Below, in pieces: positions 5,601 to 6,086 of a DNA stretch of 64,000 nt (positions within the stretch are counted from its first letter, which is position 1; each line of letters begins with the position of its first letter). Source of the stretch: Schmidtea polychroa (Eukaryota); contig CM097885.1 of the NCBI GenBank assembly GCA_044892525.1, positions 13,330,001 to 13,394,000 of the forward strand, given 5' to 3'. The notes beneath the pieces are model-generated. The model saw only the letters and a program-made list of their open reading frames with translations. It had not been told where the DNA came from and searched no databases. Position numbers and translations under genes: made by a program.

Positions 5601-6086
5601 TTCCATTTGTGCACGACATACTTGAGATCGATAATCAGGGATCATAGCAGTCATAACACCTCCAGTACTTTCAGTAATATTAAACAATCTCGTAGCTGAA
5701 CTCTTCTCAATCATTTTATTTGGAACCTGTCTTTGTGTAGCTACACATAAATTTGATCTCATATTATTCCTTTCTGAACACAAAACAATATCGATTCGGC
5801 CATTTTGATCTTGAGCACATTTCAACAAATTTGTTTGATCCATATTCAATTCACCAGGTACAGATTGAACTAATTGTCGGTCTCGAGATAATGTGATTAC
5901 AGAGAATCCATTATCCAGAACTTTAAGAGATTTGCTAGATCTGATAACATCGTCTTTACAAATAGTTTCTATTTCCATTTTGCTGCGGGTTCTATTCAAC
6001 CTTGCCATTAAATCATCGAGATCCATCAATTCCCCGTTATATTTAGATTCATAATTTGTAACTTTGTTACTTTCCATAAATTCCAA
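2646..6086 (-). CDS. Chimeric ORF (1146 codons): SNF8-like fragment, PSMA6-like fragment, PBS/AT-rich linker, ubiquitin, BEL/Pao Gag, charged C-terminal tail
   Basis: Uninterrupted frame from inside the 5' LTR to TAA at 2648-2646. The track start is TTG; the first ATG is at 6077. A downstream ATG at 5171 lies 10 codons before the ubiquitin domain. Which start is used cannot be told from sequence. Confidence 0.8.
3630..4544 (-). CDS. gag: BEL/Pao Gag: DUF1759-like capsid region (4017-4544) and three zinc knuckles (3630-3827)
   Basis: [18 protein letters not shown]...[20 protein letters not shown]...[14 protein letters not shown]. Knuckles [27 protein letters not shown] and [14 protein letters not shown], the triple arrangement typical of BEL/Pao. 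Confidence 0.9.
4914..5141 (-). CDS. Ubiquitin domain (76 aa, ORF aa 316-391) fused in frame upstream of Gag
   Basis: [76 protein letters not shown]. 53/76 identical to canonical ubiquitin by hand count, with no indels. Ends in LRLCGG. Confidence 0.95.
5497..5514 (-). promoter_or_regulatory. Primer-binding site complementary to the 3' end of initiator tRNA-Met
   Basis: The - strand reads TGGTAGCAGAGCGTGGTT directly after the 5' LTR. The + strand AACCACGCTCTGCTACCA fits the animal tRNA-iMet 3' end pattern (...AACCnnnCTCTGCTA-CCA). Confidence 0.85.
5565..5747 (-). pseudogene. PSMA6: Captured fragment of 20S proteasome subunit alpha type-6 (alpha1) inside the 5' LTR (second copy 1744-1926)
   Basis: ORF aa ~114-174 [57 protein letters not shown] aligns without gaps to recalled PSMA6 [57 protein letters not shown] (about 31/57 identical by hand count). 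Confidence 0.85.
5790..6053 (-). pseudogene. SNF8: Captured fragment of ESCRT-II subunit SNF8/Vps22/EAP30 inside the 5' LTR (second copy 1969-2232)
   Basis: ORF aa ~12-99 [12 protein letters not shown]...[21 protein letters not shown]...[15 protein letters not shown] aligns by eye with recalled human SNF8 RNGGLITLEEL...QDDLIRAIKKLKALGTGFGII...YLIQSVPAELNMDHT. Both ends of the protein are missing. Confidence 0.85.

Follow-up and report, generated by a model that had tools for sequence, protein, structure and literature searches.

Host SNF8 and PSMA6 pieces within the long terminal repeats of a Schmidtea polychroa BEL/Pao element, in a single frame that continues through a ubiquitin-like unit into Gag

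Retrotransposons with long terminal repeats (LTRs) are known to capture host genes, the captured pieces lying between the LTRs and usually crippling the element. In an element of the planarian Schmidtea polychroa, a coding segment resembling the ESCRT-II gene SNF8/Vps22 instead lies in the repeat itself, an arrangement that is compatible with a full Gag-Pol. This raises the questions of where the segment came from, how it came to lie in both repeats, and what part, if any, it plays in the life of the element. The window analysed here is the whole stretch of 64,000 nucleotides from positions 13,330,001 to 13,394,000 of contig CM097885.1 (assembly GCA_044892525.1). A sequence-only reading of this stretch had proposed that an internal SNF8 fragment lies within a 768-bp repeat, and is hence present twice, and that such fragments could be scattered across the genome and survive in solo LTRs.

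The element and the origin of its cargo

The element occupies 4,589 nt of the minus strand (1694–6282) and has paired LTRs, a primer-binding site (PBS) and a purine tract (Table 1). It is a BEL/Pao LTR retrotransposon, as judged by domains and LTR features rather than by a tree of reverse transcriptase (RT) against the named superfamilies. Target-site duplications of BEL/Pao elements are typically 5 bp. The Gag of the window copy carries DUF1759 (E 2e-12) and a knuckle that is weak by Pfam (E 0.07) and visible in the translation. A Pfam search of the element found no protease, RT, Peptidase_A17 or integrase; pol is replaced by about 1 kb without a Pfam match, and the window copy is non-autonomous. 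This replacement is an acidic coding tail common to the whole non-autonomous subfamily, with an open frame and an omega of 0.72 (not significant).

Table 1. Features of the element, in window coordinates
Feature	Position	Strand	Remarks
5′ LTR	5515–6282	minus	768 nt, TG..CA
3′ LTR	1694–2461	minus	1 mismatch against 5′ LTR
Target-site duplication TTGAG, left	1689–1693		5 bp
Target-site duplication TTGAG, right	6283–6287		5 bp
LTR leader of variable length, without frame constraint; putative promoter (U3) part	6078–6282	minus	lengths mod 3 = 11/10/10 of 31
First in-frame ATG of the long ORF	6075–6077	minus	replaces the host SNF8 Met108 ATG in the window subfamily
Host SNF8/Vps22 mRNA piece, 5′ LTR	5771–6048	minus	host nt 330–607
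Host SNF8/Vps22 mRNA piece, 3′ LTR	1950–2227	minus	
SNF8/PSMA6 junction	5745–5770	minus	26 nt, in frame
Host proteasome alpha-6 (PSMA6) mRNA piece, 5′ LTR	5567–5744	minus	spans exon 2/3 junction without intron
PSMA6 piece, 3′ LTR	1746–1923	minus	
AATAAA, predicted poly(A) signal	5562–5567, also 1741–1746	minus	
PBS, complementary to 3′ end of host tRNA-Met(CAT)	5497–5514	minus	in-frame readthrough
In-frame linker	5142–5496	minus	no Pfam match; amino acids evolve neutrally
Ubiquitin-like unit	4914–5141	minus	ends LRLCGG; 53/76 aa shared with host ubiquitin
BEL/Pao Gag (DUF1759, Cys/His knuckles)	3618–4913	minus	purifying selection
About 1 kb in place of pol	2550–3607	minus	frame open to stop at 2646; no Pfam match
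Polypurine tract	2462–2472	minus	
Single ORF from ATG	2646–6077	minus	1143 aa; SNF8 – PSMA6 – PBS/linker – ubiquitin-like – Gag – tail

The insertion sits in a short MITE-like repeat with inverted ends (window about 1352–1693 and 6283–6384). Contigs with an empty insertion site exist, and since the target is itself a repeat, of which these may be other copies, they are unusable as evidence of polymorphism. An inverted pair of CGCGTCTGTGTG motifs is found at window 6189–6265 and at the LTR starts of relatives, is doubled in some subfamilies, and is a possible promoter or packaging hairpin. The tRNA-Met(CAT) genes, whose 3′ end the PBS matches, form a large tandem array with a 454-nt period (L258, C1 about 79.33 Mb), and their 3′-end word has 1250 genome-wide matches.

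The likeness to EAP30/Vps22 that had been proposed is significant: segment 5790–6053 matches the Pfam family EAP30/Vps36 with an E-value of 6e-10, above the curated cut-off, and human SNF8 in the PDB with an E-value of 7e-11. The SNF8 piece agrees with the host SNF8 gene at 270/286 nt (94%) and 85/99 amino acids, compared with 39/83 (47%) for the best named foreign SNF8, and it is 94.9–99.3% identical to the host gene across 109 insertion loci. This identity to the organism's own gene settles the question of host versus foreign origin, which the sequence-only reading had raised: the SNF8 piece is host-derived. Foreign origin, a chance match and ordinary LTR sequence are excluded by the Pfam, PDB and host-gene matches. 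The segment does lie in the 768-bp repeat and so occurs twice; of the limits first given to it (5790–6053 and 1969–2232), the segment itself is real, and the ends are 5–19 nt off the exact host-derived limits. It is also internal, as had been supposed, corresponding to host residues about 111–203 of 244 (profile positions 103–199 of 219), and the full tandem winged-helix core is absent. Its 5′ break varies across copies (host nt 274–330), the junctions being eroded.

The repeat holds a second host piece, which the sequence-only reading had overlooked, together with the single reading frame and the other cargo described below. The sequence next to SNF8 derives from proteasome alpha-6 (PSMA6) and is 85–97% identical to the host gene, which was located with a C-terminal query, other queries having returned element copies; the nearest PSMA6 matches are from flatworms. 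Host PSMA6 has introns, and in the LTR copies exon 2 is followed by exon 3 with an exact join; the piece extends past this junction by 8–9 nt in the window copy and by more than 100 nt in longer ones. The missing intron means that capture went through RNA. Missing introns had been suggested as the sign of RNA-mediated capture, and it is the adjoining PSMA6 piece that provides it; the same comparison is uninformative for SNF8, because the host SNF8 gene is a single, intronless frame of 244 codons. Microsimilarity at switch points is expected of LTR-mediated retrocopies; no clear microhomology is seen at the SNF8/PSMA6 junction, and the junctions are eroded and variable. Host PSMA6 itself (L110 about 1790–1795) shows a stop near the C-terminus with a guessed exon 3/4 boundary, outside the captured part, which is likely a matter of the guessed boundary or of an assembly base.

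Both the scatter across the genome and the survival in solo LTRs proved to be real. Allowing at most 1 mismatch, a 23-nt SNF8 word has 326 genome matches including the host gene, which gives about 325 copies; a PSMA6 word has 1112, and a word from the ubiquitin end of the window element's family 208 (control 0 in each case). Among the 92 EAP30 matches that were unpaired, 80 were taken for classification, and 40 of these are solo LTRs bounded by a perfect 5-bp duplication; 38 of them are distinct once two duplicated loci are discounted, and a few lie in simple repeats. The remaining 40 comprise three with 4/5 duplication bases, seven 5′ LTRs, seven 3′ LTRs, 11 without a duplication and 12 that were unclassed. 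LTR pairs are 99–99.9% identical across the family, which is young to judge by this measure. Elements in tandem with common LTRs are also seen, with three or four LTRs spaced about 4 kb apart (L024–L026, C2 about 5.70 Mb; C16).

Assembled contigs from sequencing runs bridge the SNF8/PSMA6 junction and are silent on start, end and strand; none of those listed shows a poly(A) end at the LTR. Among runs X2, X4 and X7, compared over window 1400–6600, those labelled organism B contain a host-type SNF8 contig that has 33 differences from the LTR piece, against 12 in organism A. They also give near-identical element contigs, with 6–7 differences over 515 nt spanning the SNF8/PSMA6 junction, reflecting either horizontal transfer or mixed samples.

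One reading frame from the repeat into Gag

A single frame runs through SNF8, PSMA6, the PBS, the ubiquitin-like unit and Gag (and on into Pol where present), with EAP30, proteasome subunit, ubiquitin and DUF1759 all found along it by Pfam. The LTR end was located in 141 of 150 LTR copies, drawn from the EAP30 search and the best DNA matches, a sample that favours intact frames and one subfamily (39/141 LTRs). Measured from an SNF8 anchor codon, the LTR ends at a distance of 2 mod 3 in 126 of these 141, spread over 11 length classes (383–644 nt), and 120 of the 126 are without a stop. The 15 that are out of frame each lie 1–2 nt from an in-frame class; the eight 598-nt copies have lost single bases, at several different points. 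Of 36 elements read from SNF8 to ubiquitin, 30 keep the frame and 27 are free of stops, leaving nine broken. Lengths upstream of the cargo, which serve as a control, are random with respect to the frame (11/10/10 among 31 lengths).

Among individual changes, six indels common to several loci (12–216 nt) are all multiples of 3; one 2-nt deletion, common to two loci, is not. Stops make up 3 of 183 shared variants where 5.9% would be expected (p=0.005); among private variants they make up 13 of 253, the comparison of shared with private alone giving p=0.07. The non-host linker and the junctions are open as well.

Selection on residues was gauged by omega, for which distinct variants were counted relative to a real reference, using an empirical mutation spectrum rather than a tree model. 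For shared variants it is 0.94 in SNF8 (34 N, 12 S), 0.86 in PSMA6 and 0.90 in the linker. The corresponding values are 0.47 for the ubiquitin-like unit (35 variants, p=0.02), 0.38 for Gag and 0.33 for Pol, SNF8 differing from Gag at p=0.027 and from Pol at p=0.014. A subset of 20 elements gives 0.73 for SNF8 (16 variants), not different from 1. Within the SNF8 piece, a 45-nt (15-codon) deletion has spread through its own subfamily. The amino acids of SNF8 evolve neutrally, with no purifying selection on residues.

Of 38 solo LTRs, 35 have the host's internal Met108 as their first in-frame ATG; in two the first one lies 12 nt earlier, and one carries the same replacement ATG as the window copy. 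Host sequence starts at or just before the Met108 codon in most copies. Going by this placement, the SNF8 piece likely supplies the start codon. Nearly all LTRs examined have out-of-frame ATGs upstream of the cargo's own (at LTR position 145 in the window copy), and in-frame methionines are present between the PBS and ubiquitin, so that Gag could start downstream of the cargo, at a linker methionine. At the other end of the cargo, 133 of 141 LTRs have AATAAA at 41 or 53 nt ahead of the LTR end.

Relatives and the cargo slot

Relatives that bear pol have the order Gag-protease-RT-Peptidase_A17-integrase and are 93–95% identical to the window copy over the shared internal part. Several of the 20 paired elements examined retain Pol. 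Protease, RT, Peptidase_A17 and integrase are all present in two of the relatives (L049 and L045), and a third (L044) has one frame of 1421 aa from SNF8 into RT.

Elements of the same ubiquitin-Gag family (89–97% identical) can carry other cargo. SNF8 occurs in none of 20 same-Gag elements chosen for the lack of an SNF8 word beside them. Nine of these carry PSMA6, the others having cargo that is Rab-like, RING or unnamed, and the frame crosses the PBS in 10 of the 20. The label Rab-like (L267, L268 and L278) denotes likeness to the Ras-family cargo of a sister clade, rather than a Pfam match of their own. In this sister clade, whose Gag is about 32% identical, the same slot holds PSMA6, Ras/Rab, DSPc, LIM or TCP-1, and the cargo precedes the same PBS and two ubiquitins, of which the first ends in LRLRGG (in the copies read) and the second in GLAGG. 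The cargo of one element (L270) occurs in both Gag clades (L237 and L256 in the sister clade). Cargo frames of about 190–300 aa without a Pfam name (L264, L280, L270, L237, L256 and L239) are probably pieces of further host genes. As the slot holds other genes in sister copies, SNF8/ESCRT-II is not special; SNF8 is a passenger in an exchangeable cargo slot, and its identity is likely incidental.

Ubiquitin also stands directly before Gag in six of the best 150 distant Gag relatives in the protein library; of these six, three end in LRGG, and one of the six has an HSP90 piece in front. Distant Gag relatives with this layout include P0282, P0244, P0341 and P0367. To go by these proteins, ubiquitin before Gag may be older and wider than the S. 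polychroa genome. In a search for fused cargo-ubiquitin homologues, polyubiquitins dominated the matches.

Proposed capture, translation and release of Gag

The account favoured here, which we hold to be probably correct, is that the host SNF8 and spliced PSMA6 pieces in these BEL/Pao LTRs, which share a single frame with Gag and a ubiquitin-like unit, form a swappable neutral passenger that is likely the donor of the start codon and is likely cut off after the di-glycine. Capture would take place when RT, copying the LTR end from the PBS, switched onto co-packaged mRNAs, and normal strand transfer would then place the captured piece in both LTRs. If transcription starts upstream of the cargo ATG, the cargo would constitute a long R region, ending just after AATAAA, and U5 would be very short. 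Gag and Pol would be made only where the cargo frame is open, and selection would consequently act against stops and frameshifts and for no particular residue. Almost any cargo would be tolerated, because host deubiquitinases would release Gag with a fixed N-terminus.

The captured ubiquitin of cytopathic pestiviruses is a processing site cut by the host within a polyprotein, and by this analogy Gag would be released by a cut after the ubiquitin di-glycine. Release by ubiquitin cleavage is the weakest step of the mechanism. The di-glycine stands directly before its partner in 53 of 55 matches, the other two ending in GD. The ubiquitin-like unit carries the substitutions R42T, I44V, V70S and R74C, with the tail LRLCGG, and lacks the canonical LRLRGG and the Ile44 patch; these four substitutions may block deubiquitinases. 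A fold prediction of cargo and ubiquitin without an alignment had a pLDDT of 30, with even ubiquitin unfolded, and is uninformative.

It is unlikely, though worth weighing, that the cargo is translated and not released by deubiquitinases, but stays on Gag or is cut by the element's protease, ubiquitin being an aid to folding or stability. R74C, R42T and V70S in the window element would fit such a role, as would the GLAGG end of the sister clade's second ubiquitin. As far as the available texts go, C-terminal residues determine protease specificity (PMC4822132), and a diverged ubiquitin-like unit shuts out most deubiquitinases (PMC10611586). Relatives encode a protease that might remove the cargo, but the window copy has none of its own. 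The di-glycine that is kept, the canonical LRLRGG of the sister clade's first ubiquitin and the canonical tail in distant relatives all argue for a host cut, as the favoured account has it.

Small RNAs against the host gene, which the sequence-only reading had envisaged, form the core of an alternative that is less probable again: the cargo would act as RNA, with piRNAs or siRNAs from the LTRs lowering host SNF8 and PSMA6 mRNA, or with likeness to essential genes shielding the element from silencing. The numbers of copies, about 325 for SNF8 and 1112 word matches for PSMA6, suit this role. In planarians, according to the portion of the source available, SMEDWI-3 destroys mRNAs to which piRNAs of high complementarity are bound (PMC6824462). 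The window LTR shares 53 26-mers with host SNF8 (the median of 150 LTRs being 108), which makes cross-targeting by small RNAs possible as far as sequence is concerned. However, a role as RNA leaves the kept frame, the start at the host ATG and the missing stops unexplained, and the cargo drifts from the host sequence, the PSMA6 piece being 85–97% identical. A small-RNA effect on host SNF8 may nevertheless occur as a side effect.

Retroviral Gag uses ESCRT, and an ESCRT-II piece, ubiquitin and Gag are here joined in one protein. A functional SNF8 piece and ubiquitin that tether the ESCRT machinery to Gag for budding and cell-to-cell spread are nonetheless highly improbable. The omega of SNF8, the presence of residues 111–203 only of a tandem winged-helix protein, the spread of a 15-codon deletion, the replication of the same Gag with other cargo and the altered hydrophobic patch of ubiquitin all weigh against an ESCRT role, which is unsupported. 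There is similarly very little to recommend the view that the cargo is untranslated junk in U3, its frames open only through recent capture, since for all the youth of the family (near-identical LTR pairs) and the existence of upstream ATGs and downstream methionines, eleven length classes keep the frame against a random upstream control, stops are depleted among shared variants, and non-host linker and junctions are open too.

Parts of this arrangement have known counterparts. LTR-mediated retroposition in metazoans, as set out in the accessible part of Tan et al. 2016 (PMC5131818), captures partial pieces of spliced host mRNAs, sometimes from two genes, by template switching; one case is by a Pao element, and the retrocopies persist as non-autonomous elements, often in frame. 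The lack of introns in the captured PSMA6 piece agrees with that description. However, the retrocopy there replaces an internal part of the ORF between the LTRs, whereas the cargo here lies in both LTRs and in solo LTRs, is carried by elements with Gag-Pol still present, and is joined in frame to the front of Gag by way of ubiquitin. Maize Bs1 and gene-carrying TRIMs are likewise LTR elements holding pieces from several host genes, exons only, but their cargo is reported as internal rather than in the LTR, and the available passages describe no cargo-ubiquitin-Gag frame (PMC4717578, PMC2774510).

BEL/Pao elements, including the planarian Flow families, share the DUF1759 Gag, the order of protease, RT, Peptidase_A17 and integrase, and the 5-bp duplication; the part of that account available mentions neither a coding LTR nor ubiquitin before Gag, both of which are found here (PMC3118150). 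Ubiquitin directly before a protein is known from the inserts of cytopathic pestiviruses (PMC13517609) and from ubiquitin-ribosomal protein fusions (PMC10611586). In the portions of these sources available, they concern an RNA virus and a host gene with cleavage shown, in contrast to a retroelement with predicted cleavage and a degenerate ubiquitin. The literature searched (few subscription papers, no supplements and no repeat databases) contained, in the parts available, no description of LTR-internal cargo fused to Gag via ubiquitin. Cargo within the LTR itself, linked to Gag by ubiquitin, thus appears to be what is new relative to known LTR-mediated retroposition.

A wider reading is plausible and is put forward tentatively. 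The LTR of an old BEL/Pao clade would be a standing trap for host mRNAs, with the ubiquitin cut freeing Gag and in-frame pieces with an ATG becoming the element's first exon. Such exon shuffling would make translated chimeras of housekeeping genes, swapped between Gag lineages and left behind in more than a thousand LTRs; in stem cells it may direct piRNAs against essential host genes. The cargo is filtered for frame and not for function, which makes it a natural test of how useless new chimeric coding sequence can stay open. Solo LTRs multiply the pieces of host genes, and confounding is predicted, for SNF8, PSMA6 and the other cargo genes of S. polychroa, in gene annotation, read mapping and RNAi.

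Two further kinds of repeat sequence were seen in the window. A hAT-like transposase fragment of 350 aa lies at 59600–60652 (weak Pfam match). Dispersed AT-rich repeats of about 100–250 nt occur on both strands, at 1141–1319, 8694–8902, 16682–16818, 30394–30507, 49277–49399 and elsewhere.
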